This document shows positions 5,289 to 59,700 of a stretch of DNA of 64,000 nt, in pieces. Origin of the DNA: Phoronis australis. Taxonomy: Eukaryota > Animalia > Phoronida. The stretch is from NCBI GenBank assembly GCA_002633005.1, contig NMRA01000237.1, forward strand, positions 1 to 64,000, in the 5' to 3' direction. Every line of letters begins with the position of its first letter. Within the stretch, counting starts at the first letter, position 1. The position numbers and the translations under genes are program-made. The notes beneath the pieces were generated by a model. The model was not told where the DNA came from, did no database searches, and saw only the letters and a program-made list of their open reading frames with translations.

Positions 5289-6496
5289 GCAAGCGAACGT
5301 TACGGTACCCTCTGATACAGCGCCACCTATACTGAAAAGTGGCCCTGTGGAACATTTTCACGAAAGACGTCGCTCTAGTCGGTTGGCGACTAGTCTTTCA
5401 CATATGGCGCATCACATTTATAAAATACCGCAAAAAACGGGTGATGAGGTTAGATCACGCGAGATCATATGGGTTCGTATCCGCGCCAAATAAACCGCAG
5501 AAAAAAGATTCGTCATTACTGTAATTTGAATGATTTTTGTAGAAGTCTCAAATTTTCCTTCGGAGATGAAAGTTATCTCCAGTCCAGTAGATAAGATGGC
5601 CGTATGACTGAAGTATACACATCTACAGATAACGGTCATCTCCAAGGGGAAACTTGACGCTATAAAAAACTGAGGTGTCCCCAATGTTCTCGGAAGTGAA
5701 CGTATCCTGAACTAATCATTCTCCAGGTTGACTTGTAGTATTAATGAAGTTCACGCATGCGCAAATAAGGAGAAAATGGCTTAATGAACATCATACCGAA
5801 CAAAATCAGACAATCAGAAGTAACGACGTCACCGTAAAGCGTTCAGGATATGGATTAAGATTAGCTGCGTTCCGTAGACCATGTTTCTTGCAAGATAGAG
5901 CCATGCATGAGAAGCGAAGCACGCGATCATACTAGCTTCACTCTCGCAAGTGTATGACTCTTCGGAAAGCTCTCCTGTTGTTTTCTGAAAAATGCTCGTG
6001 ACACGTTACATCTTACAAACTGCAATGATAAGGACCACGTGCCTTCGTCATCCTATTTAGAAGTCTGTGCGTACATAGATTATAGACAACAGATTCGCAA
6101 CTCCGGCATATTCTTACGAGCTGAGTTGACCTCTCCTGACCTATCTGCTGCAGTTTCCGGTCAGTTTTAATTTGACGAGAAATACCTGCATCTACTTTAC
6201 TGTCCAAAACAGCGAAAAAAACATTAATTTATATTAATTTCGGTATTGAAACGCTCTTCAAAATCTTTCAATAGTAGAAGTGTTGGTATTGTGAGTACTT
6301 TTGGCAATGCTACTGGTAATTAATTTCAAAATTCAAACTTCGGTTCCGACCCTTTATGTCGTCTGCTTGCCCAATAGCAGCATAGTTATCGGACAGTTTT
6401 TGATTTACGGTTCACATAGGCCTACTGAGAAAACTACGAAAGCGTGTTGATAAATCAACATTCTCAAGTGAGCAGTTCTTCTGGGCAGTGTTGAGT

Positions 6497-6512
6497 GGCC
6501 CTTAAAAGGGCC
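6497..6512 (-). other. Histone mRNA 3' stem-loop (distal copy)
   Basis: Minus strand reads CCAAC-GGCCCT-TTTA-AGGGCC-ACTCA: 6-bp stem, 4-nt loop and consensus flanks. Purine-rich CAGAAGAA lies ~14 nt downstream (6483-6476). Confidence 0.85.
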
Positions 6513-6537
6513 GTTGGTTGTAGGTATAGCGTGAAAT

Positions 6538-6553
6538 GGTTCTTAAAAGAACC
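6538..6553 (-). other. Histone mRNA 3' stem-loop (proximal copy)
   Basis: Minus strand reads CAAC-GGTTCT-TTTA-AGAACC-A. It differs from the distal copy by two compensatory base-pair changes. Confidence 0.75.
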
Positions 6554-6563
6554 GTTGAATAAT

Positions 6564-6881
6564 TCAACATAAATCACACAGTATGCCATGCTCACTCAAG
6601 TACTGAAGGTCCTCTTCATTAAAGTTTTCATCTGGAAAGGTTGGATGAAAACAGAGGAGATGACAATATCGATGACAGTTGTAACACCTTAGATAGATAT
6701 CACCGTTCACCAACGTTGTCACGAACCCTGCATCGTTCAGTTCTTGTTCCTGTATCCACAAATAATCCTGAACTGTAGGAAAAAAATGACAAACAACACA
6801 ACGAATCAAATTTCGAAAATCATCGCCTTCGTACGATTCCGTGTTGCTGTCACCAGACTGATGTTCTTCTCCAACGTCCAT
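6564..6881 (-). CDS. Small intronless PHD-finger-like (C4HC3) protein with an acidic N-terminus
   Basis: CVVC...CYNC-x4-H-x2-C...CDLC* gives eight ligands in PHD order. An upstream ATG at 6988 would join the frame if one T were added to the T6 run near 6885. Confidence 0.65.
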   Translation of the reverse strand: MDVGEEHQSGDSNTESYEGDDFRNLIRCVVCHFFPTVQDYLWIQEQELNDAGFVTTLVNGDIYLRCYNCHRYCHLLCFHPTFPDENFNEEDLQYLSEHGILCDLC

Positions 6882-7039
6882 CGTAAAAAATCGACGTTGC
6901 AAGTGATGGAAACTTGTCTACGCTCTCGTCCTTTGTTTCTAACCTTTAACCCATTTTTTAATAAAGGGGTGTACTGTTTTTGGCTCATGTTGATAGTGCA
7001 TAATCTATGGTTTTACAATGTATTAATAGTGTTAAATGC

Positions 7040-7207
7040 ATATATATGAACTGGTCTCATTGAGGTGCACAGCAAATAAATTAACTATAACAAATTAAAG
7101 TTTTGAAAATATAAAGAGCAGTAACAGACTCCCTAAAAATTAGGCTTGTTTTCGAAAGGTTTGCGCCATTGGTGATCCGATTGGTTCAATCGCTTGCGGC
7201 GGGAAAA
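7040..7207 (-). promoter_or_regulatory. Putative cell-cycle-type promoter of the PHD ORF
   Basis: On the minus strand: TTTTCCCGCC (E2F-like, 7207-7198), CCAAT at 7184-7180 and 7172-7168, and TATATA at ~7046-7041, ~55 nt upstream of ATG 6988. Confidence 0.5.
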
Positions 7208-7378
7208 TTGATAGACCCAGTTATTGTGCGCGTGTACACTGTATCAATGCTTTGTATCTTATTCTTATTTGTCTAATCTGTTGATACAGTAAATTTCCTT
7301 ATTTATGCCCATCCTGATTTAACCCCGACTTGAGCTCCTTGGGTTTTACCATATTGGGGCTGTCCAGGGACTCACGTG

Positions 7379-7517
7379 CATGCGCGCACCCAGTCTTCAA
7401 AATGGGGGGCTCGAATTCCTGACGTTATGGACCTGTTGTTAACAAGAGAGCGGGCAGACTTTTTTGCCCACTTCGCCAAGGGGGGGGGCTCGAACCCCCC
7501 CTCTGAGTGCGCGCATG
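7379..7517. mobile_element. MITE family A (CATGCGCGCACCCAG termini), copy 1
   Basis: TIRs CATGCGCGCACCCAG / CTGAGTGCGCGCATG; perfect 5-bp TSD ACGTG. Confidence 0.85.
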
Positions 7518-7796
7518 ACGTGGTGCTTACTCGAATGAGTTTCATTTTAGCGGCTATTTCCAATTGTGTAGGTGAAGTAAATTAACAAAGTGGATGATTA
7601 TCATCACCGGTATTTCATCATTAGTATTTTTGTCGGCCTCTCAAGTTTTCCGTGGCTAGGGATTGTCACATCTGTAAGGTAGACGTGTTTCAGTGAACCT
7701 CCATGTTTGTGGCGTTATTTATACCTGACCAAACTTTGAAAAAGAAGCCCGCGTTTAAACCAGGAGCTGCATTGGGTGCAATTTGTGTAGACGTTT

Positions 7797-7953
7797 CATG
7801 CGCGCACCCAGCCTCTAATACGGGGGCTCGAATCTCTGGCAAAGTGGACCTTTTGCTAACAAAAAGCGTGAGAACTAAAATAAAAAACGGGGTGCTGCCG
7901 TATTGTGGACTTTCGTCTCTTTCTCTTGGACTTTTCCCCTGGGTGCGCGCATG
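7797..7953. mobile_element. MITE family A, copy 2
   Basis: Perfect 15-bp TIR; perfect 5-bp TSD CGTTT. Confidence 0.85.
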
Positions 7954-8729
7954 CGTTTGTCTACGTTGCTAGTTTTTATAAAGGTGGGCCTGTCTGTAGC
8001 CAACTACGGTAAATTCATAAAAGGTCACGTGCAGTGCAACTCAAGTTCATTACAAATTAAAAATCCGAACTTTCAAACCGTTTGATCTGAGTTGACATCT
8101 CAAATCAAAATTATGAAAATGCCACATAAAAGTATGAAATTGAAAATTAGCACACGTCAGCTTCACGTCCCTACCACCCCCTTTATCTTGCTTGCTACCT
8201 CTTAGGGTTCATTTCCCTTGCTTCCGAGGTTTTTCGTTATTCTGGTATTTTCATAGACTGCAGCGTACTTGGCTAAGATGGTTCAAGTTTTGTGCGGCAT
8301 ACAGTCGACATAAATAATTGAGTATGTAACCTGCTGTTGAATTGCGGGATAGATTTTGACAGGTCCAGGTATTTATTTCTGAAGTATTAATGTAATCTTT
8401 ATTTATGTTAAAGGTTTTACTAGCGTCCTATTTATTTGTACACGAATGTGAATTTGTTGAAATCGCTGATCCAAATCCTGGCCAAATCTGCGCATTATGC
8501 TGAGACCAACCGTCTGATCAGGGCCACCTAAGAGTAATTTGGTTAATTCGCTCACTAGACTATGGCTGAAGGTCCTCGTAAGGACAAGAGTTCACCAGTC
8601 ACTACCATTGGAAGAAATTTAGCGGACATTTTTCGTCAAAAAGTTTACCAGATAGTTTTCATCAAAACGGAGAAAAGAAAAATGGATTTGTGAAGACAGG
8701 ATTAAGTAGTAGGCCTACCAGAGCCTCTT

Positions 8730-8925
8730 AAAAAACACCCATCTTCGAAGTGTCGTGAACAAATGTATGGGTTTTTTTTTTGGAAGAAAAACTTCCATTC
8801 ACGTCGACGCAAGAACATAACTTTTTCTCCCAAAGCGGATTTTGTGGTCTTCGTACACTATGGAAGCTAACGCCTCTGCATTTCGCCTGCGTAGCCGAAC
8901 AACCGGCCACACAGCAACCGACCAT
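8730..8925 (-). pseudogene. THAP domain remnant (DNA transposon derived)
   Basis: MVGCCVAGCS...GVSFH...W..., then a frameshift in an A run to YICSRHFEDGCF. All C2CH ligands are present. Confidence 0.75.
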
Positions 8926-9969
8926 GATTAGCAGATTACGTACTTGCCGGAAATTACACCAGATAATTGAGCCAGGTATCGCCAGTGAATAATGACGTAA
9001 AGGCTTGTGCGTAAGACCACAGATTTCGTCCATTGAAAGTAAACGGAGTTGGCGGTCCATGTACTATAGTCTATGGTGCGTACAGGCATTTCTGGTTGCG
9101 CTTAAGTGGCTGTACGTTTGCTTTGCTCAAGTTGCTGTGAACTCATTTCCAGTTAAAAAATATAAACTTTTGATTTGGGTCACTCACTGTAGTAAAACTG
9201 ATCTTAAACTGTCATACATTCAGATGGAAGTCAATTTAGTACACACTTTCCTGGGATTTGAAGTGCGTTCTGGTTTGGAGGACTGGCCTGAGACCACTTT
9301 CGGTGCACCAACTAACCAGCCGAGTAAAGACAACTTCATATTGAGTCTAGCATCAAGCAATAATGAACTGTCAATTTTTCTCAGCCCAGGGATCCATTAT
9401 CATCAGACGAAAGGCAAATTTGAGGCCTATTTTGTAATCATGAGTTGTGTAAATCAAAAAGGGTTTTCTGCAGAAGGCGGGATTGTAGCGCTTACTGCAC
9501 AGAGGGAAAAATAACCGCGTTTTCAAATACATTTATTTTATTAGTTATGTACAAAGTGAATTCATACCTATTTAACACCACTTTAATAAATTGCATTGTC
9601 CAGCTACTTGCATGGTTCAGAAATACACTGAAATACCTAATGACATACGACAGATGTCATGTTTTCAATGTCGAGTGACTGGTCATGTGAAGTACAAACC
9701 GATTCGTACCGTCACGTGACATGCATGTTTGAAAACAATTCCCTGTATTGCGGCACTCTTAGTGGGTGTAAACGTCCCAATATACATATCAATGCCTTTG
9801 CTTAAAAAATTCAATTTGAATATGACTTCTTCACACTGAAACATGGACAAAGGGCCCCTCTAATATACTGGTAAAAACCTCCACGTGGTGACGTGTTACT
9901 TGGAAGTTAGAAAAGTGCCACATGACTCTTATTCTAGAAACGAGGTTGTTTCCAGTTCTGCCACTCCAG

Positions 9970-10119: not shown

Positions 10120-10292
10120 CAGGTAACCAACACTTTAGCTTCAGCGAAGATTTTGACATAGATAATGCCTCAAAGCAGAGAATTGAATGTTTCTTTTTTC
10201 TTAATCGAAACTGTACTCATTTTGAAAGTAAAACAATAGAACGCAATTGTTGAAGAAATGCTACCTGCTCCGGGGCACATGCTCAGGCTTAA

Positions 10293-11601
10293 AGGCGAAG
10301 GCAACCTTTTTTCATGTCATTTTTAGCAAAAATAAGGTTCGTTGATTATCCCAGACATATTTTTAACTTATTTACTGCTTTTCGTAATTTAATTAATTAC
10401 TCGTCGTCTACTCCGGAAGTGACGTTTTGGGTGGCAAGAATTTCGCGCCAATTTCTTTTCATATAGTCTGACTTTGAGAGCAGTCGAGTCAGTCATTGTT
10501 CTACCTCGGTTGTGATAAGTTCGGTCGTCGTTTGATTTTGCATACGAGTAAGTCAATATGCCAAGCTGTTGCTGCGTACTGGGGTGTACACACTATCGTC
10601 TTACGTACAGAGGAAGAACTGTCCCACTTGCCCGAGTGTCCCGCGACACACTCCCACTGAAGGGTGATCTGAGCACCCAAACTGCTTACATCCCGCCGTG
10701 TGACTCCCTCGCCACACACCTGGCACCTTCCAAATAGCTCCAATACAAGTCCACAATAAACTTATCAAATTTAGGCTCACCGATCTGTTCATTGGATGAC
10801 GAACTGTCCTCTTCACTGGGTGTCGAACTGGGCCTGTATTCACTCCCACTACTCAACATCGCTGCAGGGCTGCTTACAGGATCTGGGGTAGAGACAACAG
10901 CACAGGGCGAATCACTGCTAGTTCCCGGAATTGCACGCAATGGGGTGCGTTTGGAGGCACGGGTGACAGTAGATGAAGTTCCTCCAGTCACTGTATATAG
11001 TGGCCACAGCTAGCTTCAAAAAAGCACTTCTCGGGGTTGGTGACAGGGCACTGCCGGGAATCAACAGCGACGGTATGGTACCCTTCTTCAGGCGTTGTTT
11101 CGCAAGGACCTTCATCAATTCAGCGTACATATCTGTCATAATCTGACGGCAGAAAATGCTTGCCACACACTCGGTAACCCTCCAGTGCTTTGTACGTTGC
11201 GTGGACGGGTAGCGCTGCGTTCTTCACATGAACGAGCTAGCCAAGTACGGCGAAGTGTGTCATCCTTCGGAAAGCGACGCAAGGTACCCAAAGCGCGTGT
11301 GAGACGATAATGAGTACATCCTGGCACGCAGCAACAGCGTGGCATGTTGACTGACTCGTAAACAAAAGCAAACGACGACCGAACTTATCACAACCGAGGT
11401 AGAACAATAACTGACTCGACAGCTCTCACAGTCAGGCTATAATGAAAAGAAACTGGCGCGAAACTCTTGCCTCCCAAAACGTCACTTCCGGAGTAGAGGA
11501 CGAGAAATTAACCAAATTACGAAAAGTTGTAATTAAGTGAAAAATATGTCTGGGATAATCAACGAACCTTATTTTTGACATGAAAAAGGTTGCTTTCGCC
11601 T
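10293..11601 (-). mobile_element. Kolobok-type element with ~310-bp inverted arms
   Basis: TTAA|AGGCGAAGGCAACC ... GGTTGCTTTCGCCT|TTGA. Same family as 42296-43193. Confidence 0.85.
10605..11345 (-). pseudogene. Frameshifted 5' part of a THAP-containing Kolobok transposase
   Basis: MPRCCCVPGCTHY...RFP...W...VCGKHF...LKKGTIPS, then a Ser-rich linker, then KFIV..ELFGRCQVCG...G...CVAGH..KWDSS. Spread across four ORF-track frames. Confidence 0.75.
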
Positions 11602-11924
11602 TTGAGAGTCGGTGGGCGGAGACTGAAAAAGACATTCGTCGTTTGTCTTCAGCACGAGTCAACTATCACGGCATTTTTCTTAACTTCTGTGCTTTGAAAA
11701 AGTAATTTTAGGATTCTTGGAATATGGAATCCTATGATCCCCAAGTTTTACTCGAGACTCGACTCAAAAACCAATTATTCAATCAAATTGCGTGGAAATT
11801 GAAAGTTTACTAAATAAATCAAATAGATGCTGGAATGCCGTGCAGTTACCGACGGATAAGAATATAACATAGTAAAAATAGTAATAATGAAACGACGAGC
11901 GTCGGTACTAAAATACATTGAAAT

Positions 11925-19353: not shown

Positions 19354-22300
19354 AGTGTTTTTGCACTTTACTTTCTGAAAACACTTCGACAAAGGCAACA
19401 GGCGATGCCTTTGAGCAGAGAATTGTACGTTCATGATGTGAGAATTTGTAAAGGCGTCGAAGAAAAAATAAGTGTTCCAGGAAAAGTATTTTGGAGCGAG
19501 CGAAAATCCGGGTTCAAATCTCCTGACAAATGATATATTCATGTAAAGCTGGGTTATATGTACCTTAACGTCGAATCATCTGTACGATGTCATAGATTTC
19601 AGGATCTTTCGAACAAAATCAGTGAACTAAGATTCACTGACATTTTTATTCTGCCGTCTGCTAAATTCCGCCAAATGAAAAGTAGGTCACAACTGGTGGG
19701 ACTCCGCGAGTTAAGTAGGTCGAGTCGATAGCACTGTTTATGCTTTTCTAATCTTCGAACGAAATATTTTGATTAAAAAACTCAGGTTCATAGCTCAGGT
19801 TCACACTCATCTTGTCCTAGGTAAGCACTTAGCTCCGGTAGGTCTAAGGCTAGCTGTGTCCATGAAGTCCAATGAATGCATGTCATTAAGTTAGGCCTAA
19901 CTTCTGATGAACTTCGCACTTTTTGTAGTTCCATTGCATAAAGGTAGCTTTCAGTTAAATTTAAACGTGGCATGATCACTAAGCTCTGGTATGGTTACAA
20001 AAGATGACAAGTCTGGTGTAATGGCAAAAATGGCTATACAAAAATGACTCAAATTCTTTTTAAAGCTTCAAAAATCTAAATATCATATTTCAACAACTTC
20101 AAAATTACCTCTCCTTAACTCTACAGGCGAAGTGTATACTGGAGGCTCTCATCAAAACGTAATTCAACTGTTTATTACTTTTTCGTGACAACAGCTTGAA
20201 CAAGGCTTTGAGTTCAGTACAATGCCCCTCCCTGTGCCGATCGAATCAATTTTGGAGAGAAGTTCAGTTGAACGCCAGCTTACGGGTATATGAATAACAA
20301 AAATGTACCTCTACTAGGAAGGGAAACGATGTCCATTCGGTCGAAATAAATGGAAAATAATAAGAATGTCCTTAAAAACAACAAGTTCCGGGGACTACAG
20401 CTAGACCGTTATTTCCAACAGATGGCCAAATGATTGAAACTCCGGAGTCAAGATCAGATAGTCCTACATTATAGCCACCAAATTGAAAAGTGCGTATCCT
20501 GTAACAAATGTATTTGTTTTTAACCTTCGAGTAATCAAGAAGCATTGCTAAGTTCAGCTGCTCGAGTGGCCGTTCACACAGTTCCGAGTTAGATCCAAAG
20601 TTTACTCCTTTCGACATCACTTTTCGCCTTAGGAGATTTCAAAAAATGAGGGAATATTTTTGTCGAGCTGCATAACAGCTGTCGGAATTACACACGCCAT
20701 ATCAACACCGTTTCACCATTCTTATCGCACAATTTCTTGAGCTATAGACTAAAATAAATTTTATACGACAACATGTTGTTTGTAGGGTAAAATGGCGGCT
20801 TGGAAACGCAGACGATGGTGTGTCAAGAATGCTGCGTTGTGATTGGTCAGTTAAGCCGTCAGCCATAACCCTGGCAATTGACCTATCGCCAGGATTATGA
20901 CGGACGGCTTAATTGACCTATCAGAACGCAGCATTCTTGGCACACCTTCGTCTGCGTTTCCAAGCCGCCATTTTACCCGACAAACCACACGCAGTCGAGT
21001 AAAACTTACTTTAGTCTATAGCTCAAAAAAATGTTCGCTAAGAATGGAGAAACGGTGTTGATATGACGTGTGCAGCACCGACAGCCGTTATGGTGCTCCA
21101 GAATAATATCACGTCATTTTTGGCATGTCCTAAGCCGAAAAATGATGTTGAAAAGCGTCAGATCAAACTGTACGGCCACATGAGCAGCTGAACTTACCGA
21201 TGTTGCTTGATAACTCGAAGGCTATTATAAACACAAATATATTAGTTCCAAGATACGCACTTTTCAGCTTGGTGGCTATTGTGCAGGGCTATCTCAGATT
21301 GTAACTCCCGAGTTTGCTACGTCTGGCCGCCTTTGTCTCGGCACCTGCTGGATCTCAGCACTCTAGCGGTAGTCCCCAGAAATTGTTGTTTTCAAGGACA
21401 TTTTTATTTTATGTTTTTTATTTATTTCAACCTAATGGGCATTATTTTGTTTCGTATCAGAGGTACATTTTTGTTATTCATAAACCGTAAGCTGGCGTTC
21501 AACTGAACTTCTCTACCGGTCAAAATTCAGAGATTCAATCGGCATGCACAGGGAAGGGCACTGGATTACTGCCGGAACTCAAAGCCTTGGTCGAGCTGTT
21601 GTCACTAAAAATAAACTGTTGAATTACTTTTTGACGTGTACCTCTAGTATACACTATGTCTGTAGAGTTAGAGAGAGTTCATTTTGAAGTTGTTCAAACA
21701 TAATATTTAGATTTATGAAGCTTTAAAAAAGAATTTGAGTCATTTTTGTAAATACCCTATTTTTGCAACTACCACACCAGACTTGTAATCTTTTGTAACC
21801 ATACCACGACTTAGTGATCATGCTACCTTCAAAATTAAATGAAAGCTACCTTCATGGAATGAAACTACAAAAAAAATGCCAAGTTCATAATAAGGTAGGC
21901 CTAATTTAAATATCTCAATGATGCAAACGGACAATTCCATAGGCGGATTTGGGGGGGCAGCCCCCCCCCCTTGGCTGCCGCAAGCAAAATGAAACAGCAA
22001 GAGCGTGAGGAAATATTGAGTTCAGTAACTAGGACCGGTAGCGGAAGAGGGGGGGTTCAGACCCCAGATCGCAGTGGAATCGTGTTCCTGTTTTTTAGTC
22101 CACCGATAGATTTTCTGAACAGAAGGTCCAATGGTCTACATCCCTGGCCCCTGCAACTTTCGGGCCGCCTGTGCACATACAATCGCACTTTGCCTAATTC
22201 CACGAGGCAACATATGTTGGGCCCCCTGTGGTATCCTAGATCCGCCACTGAATTCCAGACATTAATTTTACTTCGACACAGCCCTAGACCTACCGGAGCT

Positions 22301-22830
22301 AACTGTTTGGCCAGGACGAGATGAGTGTGTACCTGAGCTAGGAATCTCATTTTTTTATCAAAATATTTCGTTACAAGATTAGAAAAGCGTAAACAGTGCT
22401 ATCGAGTCGACTTAGTCAGACACTATAGTGCATGTGTTGTCTGTAATCTATGACCTACTTTACTCCCGGAGTCCCACCAGTTGTGACCTACTTTTCATTT
22501 GGCGAAATTTAGCAGACGACAGAATAAAAATATCGGTGAATCTTCACTGATTGTATCCGAAAGATCATGAAATCTATGGAATCGTACAGATAATTCGACT
22601 TTAAGGTACATACCCAGCTTTACATGCACATATCGTATCAGTGGCCTTGTCATTTGTCAGGTGAAGGTGGCCCCGAGGCCGAGGGATCCTTCGGATTTTT
22701 GCTGGCTCCTCGAGCTCTTATTTTTTCATCGTCACCTTTACAAATTCCCATATCATGAACGTACGATTCACTGGTGAAAAGCATCGCCTCTTGTCTCTGT
22801 CGATGCGTTTTCAAATAGAGCAAAAACACT
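19354..22830. repeat. Large imperfect palindrome (foldback), centre ~20881
   Basis: The arms align in reverse complement throughout (e.g. 19675-19780 vs 22350-22505; 20780-20878 vs 20885-20985). The central spacer is ~6 nt. Confidence 0.9.
21938..22250. mobile_element. MITE family B (CA(T/G)(A/T)GGCGGAT termini) inserted in the right arm of the palindrome
   Basis: CATAGGCGGATTT ... TAGATCCGCCACTG; 5-bp TSD AATTC; absent from the left arm. Confidence 0.8.
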
Positions 22831-30355: not shown

Positions 30356-30473
30356 CAGACCGGATTTACGGAGTGCTGTAAGTACTAAGCAATTATTACT
30401 GGGTTACGGACCTGGTAAATCTTCTGAACTCCCCGTGAGTATACAATGGGTGCAACCGTTGGACTAAACACTC

Positions 30474-30800
30474 CAGGTTAACAGCACTGTGTAAAGCATA
30501 ATATACTACAGCACAGGTTAACAGCAATGTGTAAACCATAATATACTATAACACAGGTTAACAGCACTGCGTAAGCCATAACATACTATTGCACAGGTTA
30601 TCAGCACTATGTAAATCATAAAAAACAGCACAGGTTAACAGGACTGTGTTAACCATGATATACTATAGTACAGGTTAACAGCGCTATGTATATCATAATA
30701 TACTATAGCAGAGGCTAACATTACTGTGTAGACCATAATATACTACAGTACAGGTTAACAGCACAGTGTAAATCATAATTTACTATAGCACGGGTTAACG
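30474..30800. repeat. 40-bp minisatellite, ~8 copies
   Basis: Unit CAGGTTAACAGCACTGTGTAAACCATAATATACTATAGCA. Confidence 0.9.
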
Positions 30801-31561
30801 GACCATCCATTGGAGTTCGCACAAATATACCGGAAAATGTCCTAAATAATTTCGCGTTTGATTTCAAGTACAGATTAGACTGGGGGCCAAGGTCTCTTTA
30901 TGTGACCCAAAGATCTAGAGACACCATAACTACTACAGACAGGACTAGGATTACCTATTCATTTTAGTGAACGATATTTGTAAGCACAAACTTTTCTCTA
31001 AAGACGCCCGTTTAGCTCATTTGTTCGTTTCACTTGAAGCAGAACAACGTCACCAAGTATCAAACCTATACTCATGTTGGGATTGGGGTTTGGTGAATAT
31101 CTCTCAAAACGAGGCTATTTGGCTACATTTTGTAATCTTTATAAAATCCGATCCGATACGTATATTTTAACATTTCAAACTGTCAGTTACTTTTCTAATT
31201 TTTGGAGAAGTCCTTAGACTTGTATTCGTTCAGTTGCAGGTCAAAGACTTTAATTGTATCTTTTTAGTAACCTTCAGGAGGTGCGAAAATAAATGCACAC
31301 TTGTAGTTAAACTAAAATTAAGTAGCACGTTATGGCACAAGTTTCGCTAGTTTAGGTTTAGAAAACATACACTTCATGTTCATCAGACGTAGACACACCA
31401 AGCTGATATGTATGCCCCTTTCGAATGACCTTGTCCATCATAGATCAAGCAATAACCAGATGTCATATGTATCCACGCAATTTCCCGTTTACTTGCTGCT
31501 ATGATAAACCGTTTTACACAGGCAACTACCATCAAAATACATAAAACATTACTTTCCTTAC

Positions 31562-36010: not shown

Positions 36011-36321
36011 TCTTACAAGTTATTGTTTCGTTTTCGTTTTAAGTGACTTAAAATTTTTACAGTTTTGGTATGTGCATTTTTTTCTTCACGAAGATTATAA
36101 AGTCCTATTTTAAAAGTCCCTTATGCAACATTGAAACCTTTTAAAACAATTCCCAACTGAACAGCGTCTTGGAGAACAGCACTTAAAGCATAACATCTAA
36201 ACGTTTCATGTGAGTCAAATCAACTATTTCTAAGATGTGATGTTCCAAATTGAAATCTGGATTTTTAGGATACCACAGGACTAGAATCAGTATACTTGCC
36301 GGATCGTTTTTCGTAGCTTAC

Positions 36322-37818
36322 CTTTATGTGTTTTTGCCTCAGTATTTCTGGATATCTGATTGCTTCGATTTCAGAGGACGTCTTTGGCAAAACAACACCT
36401 TGTAATTGGCGTATCCTTGCACCTTCTCGGAACTTTTCCCGCCACTTTGACGCTACTCTGGTTTTAAAAGTTTCTAGGTTATCTTTAGCTAAGTGATCGA
36501 CACGTCCCGCTTTACATTTAGTGACTTGCTTGTGTTTGACGGCTTGTTCACGAGATACTTGAAGCGGGATAAGAGAATCTACCTTTGCGGAAGGTTCTTC
36601 TATTATTTTAGCTGGAAAAAGAGCGTCGTGTCTTCCGTGACACCTTGTCCCTGGTTTCTGTTTTAGATGAATATCATCACATTGGCCTCTCCCAAGCATT
36701 TTATGCATGTACTGCGACAGGGTCGTCGTTGACTGCATTGGCTCCTCAATCCTTTCTAGTTCAATGATCTTATTCCCGTTTTCAGCTTCCTCTAAATTTA
36801 TAACAGGCTTGAGCACACCAAAATGCAGATGTTCCCTGATCTGACGAATTTCAGAAAATTTGGAAGCTTCTAATTTGTCTTTTAAAGCTTGTGAAATCCT
36901 TATGGTTTTGTCCTTCGTATGTGTCGAAGAATGCTGTTTTGGTAAAACAATTCGCGGTAAACTGACTGCTTTTTGTAGCAGAGCTTCTTTGGTTACACGT
37001 TGCTCAATATCCAGGTCGCTTGCAGAACCGTCTTTGAGTGGTATATCCTCTCCCATCTGTTCTTGCAATGACTTAGTCAGGAAGACACCCGCTCTCGTCC
37101 CAGTTGCCTCTAATCCTACTAAAGCCCTAGAAGACGTTTCTACTTCCAGATTCACCGCCGATATTGATAATCCTTCAGTCATTGCCGTCTGGCTGTAGAG
37201 TGATTTGCACTTTGAGGTTGCCGCCGACCGCGATATTCGAAGAGCCTTCTTTTTTGCTTTTGTATCTATAGTTAACTTGTCTTTGATAGATTGGAATGTA
37301 ATATGAGAAGCCAAACACGTTGGTCTTTTCGGTTTAGTTGACATTTTCTGTTCTATATGGTAGTATCGAGAGCCTTCATTGCCGAGCTCTGGCCAATTCC
37401 GAACGGAGTCAAACTCTTCAACGAAAGCCTTCATGCGCATGCGGCCGGCCCTTTTTCTAAAAGCAACCTCTTCTTCACCCAGCTGGGGTTTCAGTCCAAG
37501 TCTTTCCTTGAGGTAGCCGTCCAGATCTTGCTTAATCTTCTGATATAAAGCTTCATCCACGATCACTGGCTCGCTGACGACCGGCGACAGAGTCTCTGCC
37601 TTGACCTTAAGCTCTGAAACCGTCTCGCATCCCCAGATACCAAACTCGATACTATCTCCACTGTAAGACGTGCTACAAGAGGTGCTGGGAACCACGCTTT
37701 GTGCGGACACGCAAGGTGATACGTACCCCAGGACTCTGCGAAGAGACATTGTCAAGAACGGTGAGAATACAAACATTACTGGCCACAATGACTTCTCTCC
37801 GATTCTACCGAATTCCAT
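36322..37818 (-). CDS. Large (~1.4-1.5 kb) coding exon: low-complexity basic N-terminal region of the CNBD-like gene
   Basis: 517-aa ORF with an in-frame phase-0 donor AAG|GTAAGC at 36322 that joins the 35076 exon. It starts either at its own ATG or at acceptor tcttcgcag| 37735. Confidence 0.75.
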
Positions 37819-38876
37819 GCCATGATGCGCACTGCAAGCCTAGCCGTAGCGCATTAATTGATCAACAGTTGTACAATGTTGCCCTGCTAATCACTGTTTT
37901 GTTGCAACGTTATTCTAATGCTAATGAAGCATTATTGCAGCATGGTGAAATGCACTGCACAAAACCAATAATTGACAAGCTAAGTAAAGCATAGTATATT
38001 GTTTTTTACTTCTCCGTCTCAAGAGCTGGTACCTTTAGAGACTTTTCAGTTTAAAAGCTTTCGAAAACCACCCATTCATGCAATACGCTTTCCAACCTCC
38101 ACAAAGAGAAATGGATTTTTGGTTGCGAAGAAGCATTTGACGCAGTAGGTGATGTTTTCCTCATACTCTAACTACCGCAAAACATGCTCTTTACATCAAA
38201 TCGTCACTTTCTCTCATACCCAAATTTGAAAAATTCAAGTTGGGGTTAGTTTCAAAAGCCAGAGTGAACACCAATCTTACGGAAACGTTGGATTTTCCTG
38301 ACTTGTATGCCCGAGCACCTAACAAAGCGTACTGTGGCCACAATACTACTGGGGTACTTATTCCGGAAACTCAGGAGAGCTACTTCAGGGAAAGCGTCAT
38401 TCGGAGTGTGTTCCATTGACCCTAATCTTATAGCTATCCGCTTTGATCCACAGAAAACATACGGATAGGTGCTGCCAGTAAATAGATATTACTGGGTCCT
38501 GTTTCTTACAAATTGACTTAAAACGTATTCATCAATTTGGTTTTACACTCCCCACAGAAATTTCTGAAAATAATCAAATCTCACTTGACCAAAGGGGCAA
38601 TATCTCCGAGAATATGCTCATAATTGATAATTTCTGAGAAATATTTATAAATCATTTCTGGACTGTGATGTACTCATAATTTCTAACCTAAACTACCTAA
38701 ACTTTTATCCAACAATTACTACGTGGGAGCGTAAGACCAAATTACTGTTCTCATTCTTATACCACTTTTCATGTGACCTGGACCCTGGGGTTCGTTTCAC
38801 GAAAGTGACTTAGGACCGAACAAAGAAATTTGGCCTTACTCTCCCATTCCACAATTGTTGAATGACGGTTTAGTTA

Positions 38877-42092: not shown

Positions 42093-42295
42093 ACAAATTT
42101 TTTTAAGCAAAATATCGTGGATCACTGTGATTCACATCCTTATTATGTCGCGTGCACTAGTCTCAACATAAAGTTTCTCGTGAAGCAAAAATGCACAATC
42201 TTTCAGCGTCTTCAAATGAGCGACAGACGTCATATACTAAAAGAATTATGGTATAGCGGTCATCCGAAACAGCACTGGTACTAGACGTACATTAA

Positions 42296-43193
42296 AGGCG
42301 AAGGCAACCTTTTTCCATGTCATTTTGAGCTAAAATAAGGTTGGTTGGTTATCCTAGACATATTTCCCACTTAATTACAGATTTTCGTAATTTTATTAAT
42401 TACTCGTCCGCTCTTCCGGAAGTGACGTTTTAGGAGGCAAGCATTTCGCGCCAATTTCTTTTCATATAGTCTGACTGTTAGACCTGCCGAGTCAGTCATT
42501 GTTCTACCTCGGTTGTGTTAAGTTCCGTCGTCGTTTGCTTTCATTTACTAGTCAGTCAATATGCCACACTGTTGCTGCGTACCAAGATATACTAATTATC
42601 GGCTCACGCGCGCTTTGGGAGTACCTTTGCATCGCTTTCCGATGGGTGACACTCTTCGCCGTACTTGGCTCGTTCGTGTGAAGAACGCAGCGTTACCCGT
42701 CCACGCAACGTACAAAGCAGTGGACAATTACCGTGTGTGTGGCAAGCACTTTCTACCGTCCGATTACGAAAGGGATTTGTATGCTGAACTGATGAAGGTC
42801 CCTGCGAAACAACGTCTGAAGAAGGTTGTCATTCCGTCGGTGTTGATTCCCGGCAGTGCCCCGTCGCCACCCTCGAGAAGTGCGTATTTGAAGCGAGAAG
42901 CCTGTGGCCAGTACAGTGACTGGAGCCAGTGGAGGCACTTCATCTACTGTCACCCGCGCCTCCGAACGTACCCCAGAGCGTGCAATTCCTGAAACCAGTA
43001 GTGATTCGTTCCTTCCTCATTTTATTTTCTTATTTTTATCCGCTGTACAGCTGATCTCAGTAAAATTCCACTTTTCCGTATGGAATTCAATTGTTTTAGT
43101 CCTAGAAAAATTGTACTTACTCCTTGGCTACCATTTTTGCGTACACAACCTTATTTTAGCTCAAAATGGCATGGAAAAAGGTTGCCTTCGCCT
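42296..43193 (+). mobile_element. Non-autonomous Kolobok-type element
   Basis: Perfect TTAA TSDs (42292-42295, 43194-43197); ~47-bp near-perfect TIR AGGCGAAGGCAACCTTTTTCCATG... Confidence 0.9.
42561..42992 (+). pseudogene. Truncated THAP-domain transposase ORF (143 aa)
   Basis: MPHCCCVPRYTNY...LHRFP...W...VCGKHF...LKKVVIPS. The second Cys ligand is replaced by Tyr and there is no catalytic domain. Confidence 0.8.
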
Positions 43194-43366
43194 TTAATAC
43201 ACAAAACATAACGAGAGTGGCGTAGATGAAGTAATATCCCACTTGACACTATTCCGCGTATCGACCACCGAGACCGAATTACGAAAGGTGAATACGGAAG
43301 ACATTATTACATAGCCGTATTGCACTCGACTGATTCAACGCGTATGGGATGACCTGTATAGATATT

Positions 43367-45964: not shown

Positions 45965-46938
45965 TGTATATATGTTTATTTCCGTTGTATAAAGGCCAGA
46001 GGTCCACAATACAATAATATAGCGTTCAAGCGCATAAAACTCAACCCTCCAACATTTCTCTGCATAATCTCTCTATTCTTTTCAAAGTGTAAAAAAGTGA
46101 ATTTAACAATGTAATTTTCACAACCTACTATCGGATGAAGGAAATAATCAAGGGTGGAAATTAAATGCGTCACAAACAAGAACAAAATGTCTTCAACACA
46201 GTTTCTTGTAAAGAAAGGACATATTCTATCATTCTGAATATCTGGTTGCAAACCCTATAAATAAGTCATTCCTTCGTCGTGGAAACAGTATCAAAAAGGT
46301 TCCTTAGCAAACCACCCTGGTTTAGCCATACTTCTTGGAAACTATATTTCGATGAAATGTTTTCAACTGACGATGCCCAATTATCTTTAAGCCTGTCACA
46401 GTGCCATAAACCGCCTTCGCGTATATGTCAGACATCATAAAGATATTAAACCAGAATTTAACTAGTGTTACATAATACCCACTCAATAGAGGGAACCTCC
46501 TACATTCACTTAATTTGCAGCGGTTTCTTCTCCAAGAAAAATTTCAAAAAAATGCAAATGCACCCTTTCGTACTCCTTAAATCCCCAGATTTCACAACCA
46601 TAACAAAGTGACGGGTATATCAGTTTAATAATTCAAAAGACACTGAGTTGCATTGAAATTTTTCAGCATCACCTATGTCTGACCCTTATCAAAGAACCAT
46701 TTTTTTCTAATTTGGCAATGAACTTCCATTTTCAATACATTTTTGTTTTTGAATGTCTAACGCCCTTTAATAGCTATTTTCACAATTAAACATTCTCTGC
46801 AGATTCACTGGAGTACTCGCACATAACATCAAATCTTCTGCATACAGTAAAGTAGAGGAAAATTTTGCGCCTAAGAAAGAATTCGAACCTGGTGAGGGAG
46901 AGGCACATACTTTGAACGGTCGAGATGAAGAGAGAGAA

Positions 46939-47701
46939 ATGACGTTCCTTTCTGCGAAGGACGATCAAGACGTAGACGATTTCATCGACTCTCTCTTGGG
47001 GAAAACAGTTGCTGAGGAGGCGCATGGAGCTCCATACAAAACCAATGACATTTATGACGAGAAGAAATGTGGTGTGGATTACGGAGATGTCGTCTTCTCT
47101 TTGTTGAGAGCAATGATAGCCGAGGACGTGCAGGAAGCTCAATACAATACCTACGATTTTCGCATAGAGAAAAAATGTGACGTGGATGACGGCGATATCA
47201 ACAAATTTGTCGACTATCTGTTGCGAGCAATAGTAGGACGATTTTCGCATCGAGAAAAATGTGATGTGGATGACGGCGATATCAACAAATTTGTCGACTA
47301 TCTGTTGAGAGCAATAGTAGGACGTGCAGGAATCTCCTAACAAAACCAATGACTCGTATCGAGAACAAACGGGATGTGGATGACGGCGATGTCGACGAAT
47401 TCGTCAACAGTTTGTTGGGAGCAATAGTGGCTGAGGAGGCGCAGGATGATCAAACCAACGCTATTCATATTGAGATGAAAGTGAACTTGATGACCCAGCA
47501 AACCCATCAAAGAAGGGCGAACGTGATGTCGCAGACACACTGACGATGTCTAACGGGACGTATCAAGTGCAGTGGGAAAGCAAGGAAGGTGGAGCTTGTG
47601 AAAAGAACTTAGGGACAACGAAGGATATCGTAAGAGAAAAGTTGAACGAGAAAATCACGGAGGCCCTGAGCAAAAGAGAGGCGCTAGACAACGTACCGTG
47701 A
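46939..47701 (+). pseudogene. Frameshifted acidic tandem-repeat protein (5 units of DVDDGD..FV..LL.A.VAE)
   Basis: Repeated GATGTGGATGACGGCGAT...TTGAGAGCAATAGT. The protein-like frame continues across indels near 47320, 47352 and 47472. Confidence 0.5.
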
Positions 47702-56520: not shown

Positions 56521-56728
56521 TTTCACAACAGGTCTATAGCATCAAATTAACACTTTTCACATCAGGTCTGAAGCTTCAAACTAACACTTTTCACAACAGG
56601 TCCGTAGCATCAAATGAACACTTTTCACAACAGGTCCGTAGCATCAAGTGAACACTTTTCACAACAGGTCCGTAGCATCAAATTAACACTTTTCACAACA
56701 GGTCCGTAGCTTCAAGTGAACACTTTTC
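56521..56728. repeat. 34-bp minisatellite, 6 copies
   Basis: Unit TTTCACAACAGGTCCGTAGCATCAAATTAACACT. Confidence 0.9.
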
Positions 56729-59700
56729 CATGTTCAAAGTCTGTACCATAGCTACCATCAGAGAATATTTCGCTAAAATTGTATCCATCAATGGCAATGT
56801 GAGAAGCCCTTGAAAGATAAAAATGGACAATTTTGGTGTTTACTTTTATGCATACCTAGGCTTTTCTAGCGTGCGATAGACTGCAACTGAATTCAAATAG
56901 TAAACTAGCTCCAGGCTATCACTCAACCCTGTCTGTTCTCTTAAGTTATTTTTGTTACCTATTAGTTTCATCCACCACTATTTTTTGAGGGTATTGCATT
57001 CATCTCCTTTACCATGGGGAAATGCTGTAGTAACGTTCTTGTAAGTTGTCATTCATTGCCTCCACAGTCTCTTGCCTTTGGCTGTATGACAGCATCGGGT
57101 TATTGGAATATAAAAAGCTTTCTTTTCAGCTTCATTATTTAACTATTTTAAAAGTGCATTGACTTCATCAATTGCACTATTTTTTTGACTCCTGCATTCA
57201 TTGTCGCTCTGACCCGAAATATTCACATATCTCCTTGAAAGCCAATGGGCAGCCAAGCCTGTAGTTTATGGCATTGTTTTGCCTCAATCGCCAATATTAT
57301 TCCTCTTATGACGAGTCATCATATGTAACTCACGGTAGTGTACATTAAAAACATGGCAAGGTTTGCCTTTTCCCAGGCCCATGGCTTCACCGTCTGCGGA
57401 CGTTCTGCGGAAAAAAATCGCCTTTCTGTGTGGTGAGTATATAGCAACAGTGCTCTGTTTAACATCACAACACAGTCAATCACAGGTCTGACCCAAATAA
57501 CAATACCCAGTGCTGTGTGAGAACACATGTGTTACCTTCTGTCAGTTGGCCTGTTACCTGTGATTGTGGTTGAGTATTCACTACAGGTATTTGCACTCCT
57601 TTGTATACCTGAGAGTAGGGACTGGGTTGTAGTTTATCTGTACCTGGTTCCAGACTCCTGATTGCATACTTATTAACTTATGATAAGGTGGGTTAAAGTT
57701 GGTTGACCTTGTGTTAAGCAATGTACACTTATCTAGAGTGGTGTCTCTAGGTGTATATATTTTCCCTTTTGTGTTACCTGTCTGTCGTTATTACCTGCAG
57801 GTTAGTAGTGTTTGAGTATAGGGTATGTCAAATTTATCGTGTGTCCTGTAGTTTTTTGTCTGTCAGTTTTTGTGTGTAGTATAGATACTTCGATATGTTA
57901 TGTGTTCTTCAGGTAGATATTTGAACAGTCTATATTTTTGTACGCCTTCAGTGTCTTATGCTGTGTAAACAGTTCTGAGTCTCAACATCATGTTAAATTA
58001 TCTTTAATTTTACTATATTTGTTAAGATTAGGGAATGGGAATTGTCATTTTAGTTTTTTCATTATCCAGGTAACAATTTACCACTTTGCCCCATTATCAA
58101 TGTTCAGGTTGCGTGTGGTTTTGTCAACAATTTGCTTGTAGGCTGACTATGAAGCATAAAAATGACTAAAACTGTTTTGTTTTAAGATTGTTCTGAACTT
58201 GTAAATTTAAGCAACTTCTTGGTTTTGGATCAGATTTCTGAAGTTTCAAGCAGAAATATTGTTGTGAGATTAAAATTTAAGTTCCGAACATTTTATTGAT
58301 TGTTTTAGAAATCTGTAATTGAATTTTTTCATGCCTTTGTGACAAAATGTGATTAGTAAAAAACTTGAAGCCTAATCCTTTAGAGTCACTGCAAGTGGTG
58401 ACAGTAGTAAAACAAAAATGCAGATTACAAATTACTATTTCCTCTGAGTTTTCTTGAATGAGTTCAACCGCGAAAAAATGCAATAAAATTATTATTTTGT
58501 CATTCAATAGCTCTGCGGTTAAGGGGTCGAATTTTCTATTCAGTAAGTAATGTGATCTGGCCCCTGAAGTTGAATTGTGATCCACTTAAAGGCTTTGTTT
58601 GCATTTTATCTTAAGCGCTGTTGATACAAAGTAATTCCCATAACTTTCCACTCTGGCTGTTATCTTTTGGGCTCAACTGCTGATGAAAATTGACTTACGA
58701 TTTGTCAGGCGAAAAATTCACTTCTCCAAAACATCTCCAATTAAAGATTTAATTGCTCATTAACAACTGTCCCCGAAGTCAATTGAAAAAGGAATTCAGA
58801 GCAAGTGACCAATAAATAATTCATGGAATTCTGTCATCGATGTTTCTTGTGTGTTGTATTTTCTATTAAAAGTCATTTTTGGATCTTTCGTTGTTCAAAC
58901 AAAATTCCTGTATGGTGTTATATAATTGAGGTTGGGTAATCATTCACTTAATTAGTATTCATTGACTTCTTGCAACTGTGAATTTTTTATCAGAAAGAAA
59001 CATTGCTTTTTACCGTTGCTTATATTTACCCGAACAAGATGCCCGAGCGCAAGTGGATATGCAAAAAAGTAAAACCCGCACAATTTGACCCCTCTCCCCT
59101 GTAACAAGGTACCGTACTCCTTTGAGAAATTGGATCTTGTGCTAATTACGTTCTTGCAAAAACGATGTTATCGGGAACGGTGTCGACTCGAGGATGAAAT
59201 AGGGATCAGCTACGCGCTTGCTCTTCCTACGGTAAAATCTCATGAATCTAGAACACACGGTGGTCAAGTAAAATTTTATTATCTCACTTTTTTGCGTACA
59301 AGACCTAGTACTAAATTAATGCTTTGCAGTGCTCAAGTTCTGCACTGTAACTGCCCTCAGACAAAATTGTGGGACATTTGCGACAATGTAAACGTCCCGT
59401 GAAAAATGAAAGAATGGCAATTTTGACAACTATTTTGTCCGAAATTGCTAAGATTTTACTGTATTTTATGTAGACACTACTTCCCTTTGAGATGCACTGA
59501 ATGACTTTGTTTTTATAGTTCATTCATACAACAAAAGTTGAAACGGAGCGAGTTGACACTGCCATTTTGTCACCATCTCATTCCATGTCAGCTATACGTC
59601 TCTACCTCTGAATATGTAAAAGCTTGCCATTTTTTCTTTTTCATCATAAACTCCAACCCACCCTGATTTTTAACCTTGAGGATGTGTACTCCACCATCCA

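Follow-up and report, generated by a model that had tools for sequence, protein, structure and literature searches.

Can a gene that does not encode a histone have its message ended in the way that histone messages are? Histone mRNAs have been described as the sole clients of the SLBP/U7 pathway (PMC5054213), and a study with CLIP of human SLBP likewise treats them as the only ones (PMC4604434). The question arises from positions 1 to 64,000 (forward strand) of contig NMRA01000237.1 in the Phoronis australis assembly GCA_002633005.1, a stretch of 64,000 nt that we refer to as the window. A previous reading of its letters alone (the sequence-only reading) had proposed that a small PHD-finger gene in the window ends in histone stem-loops and is host-derived or carried by a mobile or viral element. 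Our analysis supports the presence, on a mobile element, of a PHD gene that encodes no histone but has a 3' end of the histone type, and the PHD gene of this 3-kb element likely borrows the histone mRNA pathway (Table 1).

Table 1. Features of the PHD gene and of the element that carries it, in window coordinates.
Feature	Position	Strand	Evidence or remarks
Non-autonomous P-like DNA transposon, 3,002 bp	6074..9075	-	Inverted ends, 7-bp duplication, THAP remnant, divergent copies
Target-site duplication GTGCGTA (7 bp), left	6067..6073	+	Exact copy of right
Target-site duplication GTGCGTA (7 bp), right	9076..9082	+	Exact copy of left
Terminal inverted repeat, element 3' end	6074..6105	+	Starts CATAGA; CAACTCCG at 25-32
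Terminal inverted repeat, element 5' end	9044..9075	-	11/12 terminal bases match, plus CAACTCCG block
ATTAAA, possible fallback polyadenylation signal (inferred)	6166..6171	-	Motif
HDE-like purine run CAGAAGAA	6476..6483	-	GAAGA core, +16 to +20 from SL2
Histone stem-loop 2 (SL2), CCAAC and ACTCA flanks	6492..6517	-	RF00032, 34.8 bits
Histone stem-loop 1 (SL1), CAAC flank, no HDE behind	6533..6558	-	RF00032, 22.8 bits, E 0.0037
ORF, 105 aa, acidic S-N-T-E-S motif and C4HC3 PHD finger	6564..6881	-	Sequence, model, alignment
E2F-like (7206), CCAAT (7184, 7172) and TATA-like (7113, 7046) motifs	7040..7206	-	Motifs; putative promoter of ORF
MITE-like short inverted-repeat insertion in transposon	7379..7517	.	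High read depth, loose ends
Second, related MITE-like insertion	7797..7953	.	Sequence comparison
Frameshifted THAP-domain remnant	8723..8925	-	Pfam THAP halves in two frames

The gene and its 3' end

The intronless minus-strand ORF described in the sequence-only reading was confirmed as one continuous frame with all eight C4HC3 ligands (C28, C31, C66, C69, H74, C77, C102, and C105), and no splice joints were found between 5900 and 7700 in four runs. The tandem stem-loops claimed behind it were also borne out. SL1 (GGTTCT-TTTA-AGAACC, 6553-6538) begins 10 nt past the stop and SL2 (GGCCCT-TTTA-AGGGCC, 6512-6497; fold energy, -11.5 kcal/mol) begins 51 nt past it; both are perfectly paired and their sequences are unlike. 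In an Rfam scan, a check that the same reading had proposed, the Histone3 match covering SL2 (6471-6517) exceeded the gathering score of 34 and was the sole gathering-level hit across the 64-kb window, with SL1 scoring under that threshold. Using a relaxed hairpin pattern, we recovered SL1 and SL2 and nothing else in the window (n = 2). Simulation of 300 windows of 64 kb under an order-2 Markov model yielded four strict hairpins, an expectation of 0.013 per window. At this rate, we do not attribute to chance two hairpins that lie in the sense orientation directly behind a stop.

The purine-rich stretch that had been reported past the hairpins could be narrowed to a GAAGA core that follows SL2 and that pairs at 5/5 positions, with one G-U, with the UCUUU box of U7. 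The box used here is the one described as universal in U7 (PMC5054213). A match of this kind lies behind SL2 only. The mature 3' end is predicted near 6492, just after SL2, and we infer that the end is set by SL2, with SL1 acting only as an additional binding site for SLBP. A switch in which an arm of SL1 masks the HDE was found in a 101-nt fold and was absent from folds of 161 and 301 nt; we rejected it as not robust. The 161-nt fold, but not the 301-nt fold, placed both hairpins inside a 12-bp stem formed by the end of the ORF (6600-6589) and the sequence behind the HDE (6473-6462).

Despite these features, it is possible that one or two histone 3' fragments were captured passively and ride along unused, with the PHD message, if there is one, being polyadenylated or read through. 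The absence of AATAAA noted in the sequence-only reading held as far as 6074, although the same interval contains TATAAA at 6233 and ATTAAA at 6171, the latter of which fits a captured and unused end. On the other hand, capture has to account for two hairpins of unlike sequence that are paired throughout, keep their flanks intact, and lie in the sense orientation 10 and 51 nt past the stop. Also against it, we found no histone remnant by Pfam in 13 segments of the element, and a histone motif scan returned only chance-level matches, none of which was inside the element; on these results we rejected a decayed histone gene lying next to the ORF by chance. We consider passive capture unlikely.

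RNA reads are in line with passive capture as far as they go. In three 2026 runs carrying the same species label (X9 to X11; library type unspecified), 961, 873, and 574 reads fell on 5900-7700, the majority of them repeat-derived. The ORF and the sequence downstream of the hairpins were covered at about the same depth, reads crossed both hairpins, and there was no pile of read ends at 6492 or 6533 in any of the three runs. In X9, read starts cluster at 6523; we considered this cluster as a 3' end and rejected it, as it sits between the hairpins and beside two copy variants. Reads on a multi-copy element may derive from other copies, from introns, or from DNA, and in differentiated tissue even genuine histone messages run on to a poly(A) end (PMC5100578). 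For these reasons, together with the unspecified library type, the read-through is not decisive, and SLBP/U7 processing of the PHD message remains quite probable.

Upstream of the ORF, the TATA, E2F-like, and two CCAAT motifs that had been listed were all present. However, five ATGs (7060, 7041, 7001, 6988, and 6954) lie between the TATA at 7113 and the ORF, an arrangement unlike that of a histone gene. Because these ATGs intervene, the motifs are no more than candidate promoter elements of ORF 6564-6881, and the promoter appears cell-cycle-like but not clearly histone-like. The start codon leaves room for another explanation, in which functional hairpins terminate a longer transcript, either a THAP/transposase leader with the PHD frame or an N-terminally longer PHD frame, and the ORF starting at ATG-6881 is derived and confined to one subfamily. 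A second subfamily, seen in rows with indels and in loose ends, has one base fewer near 6882, which opens a different upstream frame, and shows no ATG there. Set against this, an identical contig of high depth has the ATG of the window subfamily in a good context, and the missing splice joints within 5900-7700 also speak against a longer transcript. We regard the longer transcript as improbable.

The PHD-finger protein and its relatives

The product of the ORF is not a histone; it has a C4HC3 finger, and its model matches PHD structures. Pfam PHD scored the window protein at 10.1 bits, under its cut-off of 24 (E 0.88), while relatives of the protein reached E 3e-7 with PHD_NSD. The predicted structure (pLDDT 82) had MLL3 PHD6 as its best Foldseek match (probability 0.97, E 0.048). 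With VIA-align, where Z reached at most 4.6, PHD was named in 24 of the 27 top titles, and the highest-placed RING came at rank 47. The structure check proposed by the sequence-only reading thus gave a PHD fold as the best match by two aligners, at low but consistent scores, and on this model the protein is a PHD finger and not a histone.

A full-library search returned eight matches at E <= 0.001 (seven of them family members), and a profile search matched 30 of 470 candidates (about 30 homologous clusters), one of them named from Dreissena polymorpha. One sequence (P0008) was left out as a repeat protein that does not belong to the family. In an alignment of 33 rows, each of the eight ligands was kept in 31 to 33 rows; T14, E15, G60, C69, and H74 were invariant; and an aromatic residue occupied position 63 in 32/33 rows and position 72 in 33/33. 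An SDTE motif was present in 29 of 36 family sequences, and the window protein has SNTES, with N for D. Family members begin at this acidic motif, and fused forms were found in none of 7,915 longer candidates, a weak test; both observations count against a longer transcript. In a tree from which P0004, P0005, P0007, and P0034 (partial) were excluded, the window protein, together with P0001 and P0002, formed a separate long-branch clade (support, 100/97). A C-terminal tail is missing from P0001, P0002, P0006, P0036, and P0037.

What the protein does can be approached through its conserved residues. The aromatics at 63 and 72 may serve in binding a histone tail, to which we give an even chance. 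The acidic motif, S-D/N-T-E-S, is of the CK2 type and could by analogy recruit repair proteins with an FHA domain, a role that we think fairly unlikely. In MDC1, SDT motifs are phosphorylated by CK2 and bind the FHA domain of NBS1 (PMC2315671); the resemblance is a lead only.

Relatives in their genomic setting came from a metagenome scan with 14 closer query sequences. Its 55 pattern hits gave six loci, five of which were real (L001 to L005); the sixth (L006), as well as two loci from prokaryote genomes (L008 and L009), was rejected as a short chance match. A two-gene layout, with a PHD ORF of 108 to 110 aa, was observed in L001:826-3169, L002:1836-4006, L003:1-2462, L004, L005, and the Dreissena record P0030. 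The distance from the PHD stop to the start of a long ORF is 2 nt in L002 and L003 and 31 nt in L001, and L004 and L005 are decayed versions of the same layout. The long-ORF product of L003 passes Pfam DUF7869 and matches DUF7869 clusters at 0.97, and a 40-aa segment of this ORF recurs in P0030 (60% identity, E 5e-15). The D...D...D motifs of the L003 product presumably resemble those of a Sola-type transposase. In the literature, we found no description of a PHD ORF placed 2 to 31 nt before a DUF7869 transposase-like start, nor of any PHD ORF carried by a Sola or P element, with the original description of Sola outside the scope of the search.

None of the five homolog loci had a histone hairpin (0/5). 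That homologous ORFs lack the hairpins had been named as grounds against a histone-type end, and in part this is what we see: the homologs work without hairpins, as passive capture would have it. But they are only about 40% identical to the window protein and stand before a different, transposase-like ORF. Both sets have in common the PHD family membership, the C4HC3 finger, and the S-D-T-E-S motif, and differ in that the homologs' PHD ORF adjoins the transposase-like ORF without a hairpin and the window protein falls in its own clade. The adjoining ORFs also lend some support to a longer transcript. No DUF7869 remnant was detected in the window element (best tblastn E, 0.27, outside the element). 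Because of this, and because the window protein sits on a separate long branch, one PHD family occurs in two unrelated kinds of element. Since the homologs precede a DUF7869 ORF without a hairpin, the sequences point to a family of transposon accessory genes of which one lineage gained a histone-type 3' end. Among the homolog loci read, the histone-type end is specific to the window lineage.

The carrier transposon and its copies

Of the proposed mobile or viral carriers, the mobile one stood, in the form of a P-like DNA transposon, and no viral relative was found. Direct 7-mer pairs that enclose an 11/12 inverted repeat at a spacing of 200 to 10,000 bp were rare in the window (2 of 54,054 pairs); one is the 6074-9075 element and the other sits in a large palindrome. 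RNA and contig depth was 0 to 2 left of 6074, and the loose ends there varied. P elements make target duplications of 7 to 8 bp (PMC5199201), a range that includes the 7 bp seen here. The THAP remnant lies 150 bp inside the 5' end (9075). The THAP profile matched it as consecutive halves in two frames (positions 1-34, E 0.052; 37-60, E 0.0029), both under the cut-off. An N-terminal THAP domain is a hallmark of the P element. The remnant is on the strand of the PHD gene, as a transcript with a THAP leader would require. A P-type catalytic transposase core was not found in the 13 minus-strand element segments scanned, and because of this we term the element P-like and non-autonomous and not P proper.

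Searches of viral contigs with three queries gave no relatives among 64, 72, and 3 pattern hits, and BFVD contained no match for the PHD protein at E <= 0.001. In one viral contig, the sequence where a short ORF ends matches the histone hairpin pattern exactly (L007:1660-1680). We rejected it as a viral link, as there was no histone-like context and the match is put down to chance.

Several other repeats were observed in the window. The terminal 42 bp of the element (6074-6115) also occur in a repeat family of much higher abundance, whose sequence departs from the element past 6115, as seen in loose ends; this family probably represents a MITE that the same transposase mobilises. A large palindrome (19371-22818) is imperfect, with arms that are 80 to 94% alike, and a short piece of it ending at 22452 matches the terminal repeat of the element at 19/21 bases. 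Two related elements at 10289-11606 and 42292-43197 have long inverted ends starting TTAAAGGCGAAGG, and the second holds a THAP ORF (42552-42992; Pfam E 1.3e-9); we take both to be Kolobok-like. Tandem repeats were found at 46774-47468, 30426-30818, and 56521-56758, the first within an open frame made up of repeating acidic units. A minus-strand open frame of 524 aa (36265-37839) has no Pfam match and is probably a host exon.

Copies of the element were assessed over a 501-bp region (6400-6900). Run X1 contained 54 contigs for this region, 24 of them at <90% identity, and three other runs contained 9, 2, and 1. Variant statistics are based on the 40 variants listed of 78, of which 38 are in the ORF. 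These 38 comprise 19 synonymous changes, 16 missense changes, and 3 stops, with 24 at third positions (for the variants listed, pN/pS = 0.24-0.39 depending on transition weight, P = 2e-5 to 3e-3). The pattern is, to all appearances, that of a selected master lineage accompanied by dead copies. A synonymous skew and cell-cycle-type promoter motifs could also be expected of a domesticated host gene whose repeat-like ends are incidental. Yet such a gene would not be flanked by an exact target duplication and inverted ends, nor have many copies, some with stops, and relatives linked to transposons; we consider it very improbable.

Among the variants listed, the hairpins themselves were spared. Among the 40 variants listed of 78, none fell within 6487-6584, though the majority of the divergent copies did not align over SL2, and variants were depleted in 6531-6584 relative to the ORF (P = 0.0016 for the variants listed). 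Two contigs at 84 to 87% identity cover both hairpins without gaps. There was also no stem variant among the 40 listed of 200 in one comparison or the 40 listed of 78 in the other, which counts against hairpins that ride unused. One divergent contig departs at 6482, inside the HDE, and this loss is what passive capture would allow. The variant-free region hints at selection on the hairpins.

A transposon gene with a histone-type end and its counterparts

On balance, it is probable that the PHD gene is cargo of a transposon and that its message is ended histone-style by SLBP and U7. Under this reading, SLBP would bind the hairpins and U7 the purine run, the transcript would be cut near 6492, and the product would be a non-polyadenylated PHD mRNA. 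Histone-type processing would confine a transposon helper to dividing cells. The helper might then read a histone tail and assist the element, for example in choosing targets, in repair, or in evading silencing. Cut-and-paste elements gain copies by moving during or after replication, so that S-phase timing of a helper would be useful. Expression of the PHD gene in S phase or early embryos is conceivable, at a shade less than even chances. A more general form of the idea is that DNA transposons of marine invertebrates made a shared accessory protein, a PHD reader of histones with a CK2/FHA-type motif that recruits repair factors, a client of SLBP/U7, so that an adaptor between chromatin and repair is timed to S phase and early embryos, and that histone-type ends are a general tool of mobile elements; this we think doubtful.

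A 2026 survey of the machinery makes no mention, in its main text, of non-histone or transposon clients (bioRxiv 10.64898/2026.10.14.759114), and no non-histone or transposon case with a histone-type end is described in the parts of PMC13525598, PMC5751038, and PMC10294476 covered by our search. Nor did the wider literature search, which had Repbase and key transposon papers outside its scope, return such a gene. If the PHD message is processed as proposed, a selected, protein-coding transposon gene would be a natural non-histone client of SLBP/U7, and a cut-and-paste element could couple its helper protein to replication. The hairpins aside, the small PHD proteins defined here form an undescribed family, whose presence in two unrelated types of DNA transposon suggests action on host chromatin and not on one transposase.

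Like non-autonomous derivatives of the P superfamily, the element has short inverted ends starting with CA, a 7-bp duplication, and THAP near one end; it differs from the superfamily in that no catalytic core was found in this copy and in that a further gene, with an end of the histone type, is on board. The protein shares its ligand order, fold, and aromatics at 63 and 72 with the PHD fingers of chromatin readers (MLL3/MLL4 PHD6, MLL1 PHD3, Pygo, and BAZ2A), but it is a stand-alone protein of 105 aa with a long insert between ligand pairs 1 and 2. Its family has an acidic S-D-T motif like the repeats of MDC1, whereas there is a single motif, followed by E-S, and the window copy reads S-N-T-E-S.

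The nearest counterparts of the 3' end are replication-dependent histone genes (RF00032, SLBP, U7/HDE). The 6-bp stem, the 4-nt loop, the canonical flanks, and the purine run at +16 are the same, as are the lack of a visible intron or a nearby AATAAA and the presence of CCAAT and TATA motifs upstream. In contrast to histone genes, the window gene encodes a PHD finger, has tandem hairpins and upstream ATGs, and resides on a transposon and not in a histone cluster. Its 3' end thus probably functions as that of a histone gene does, yet the gene itself is not one.
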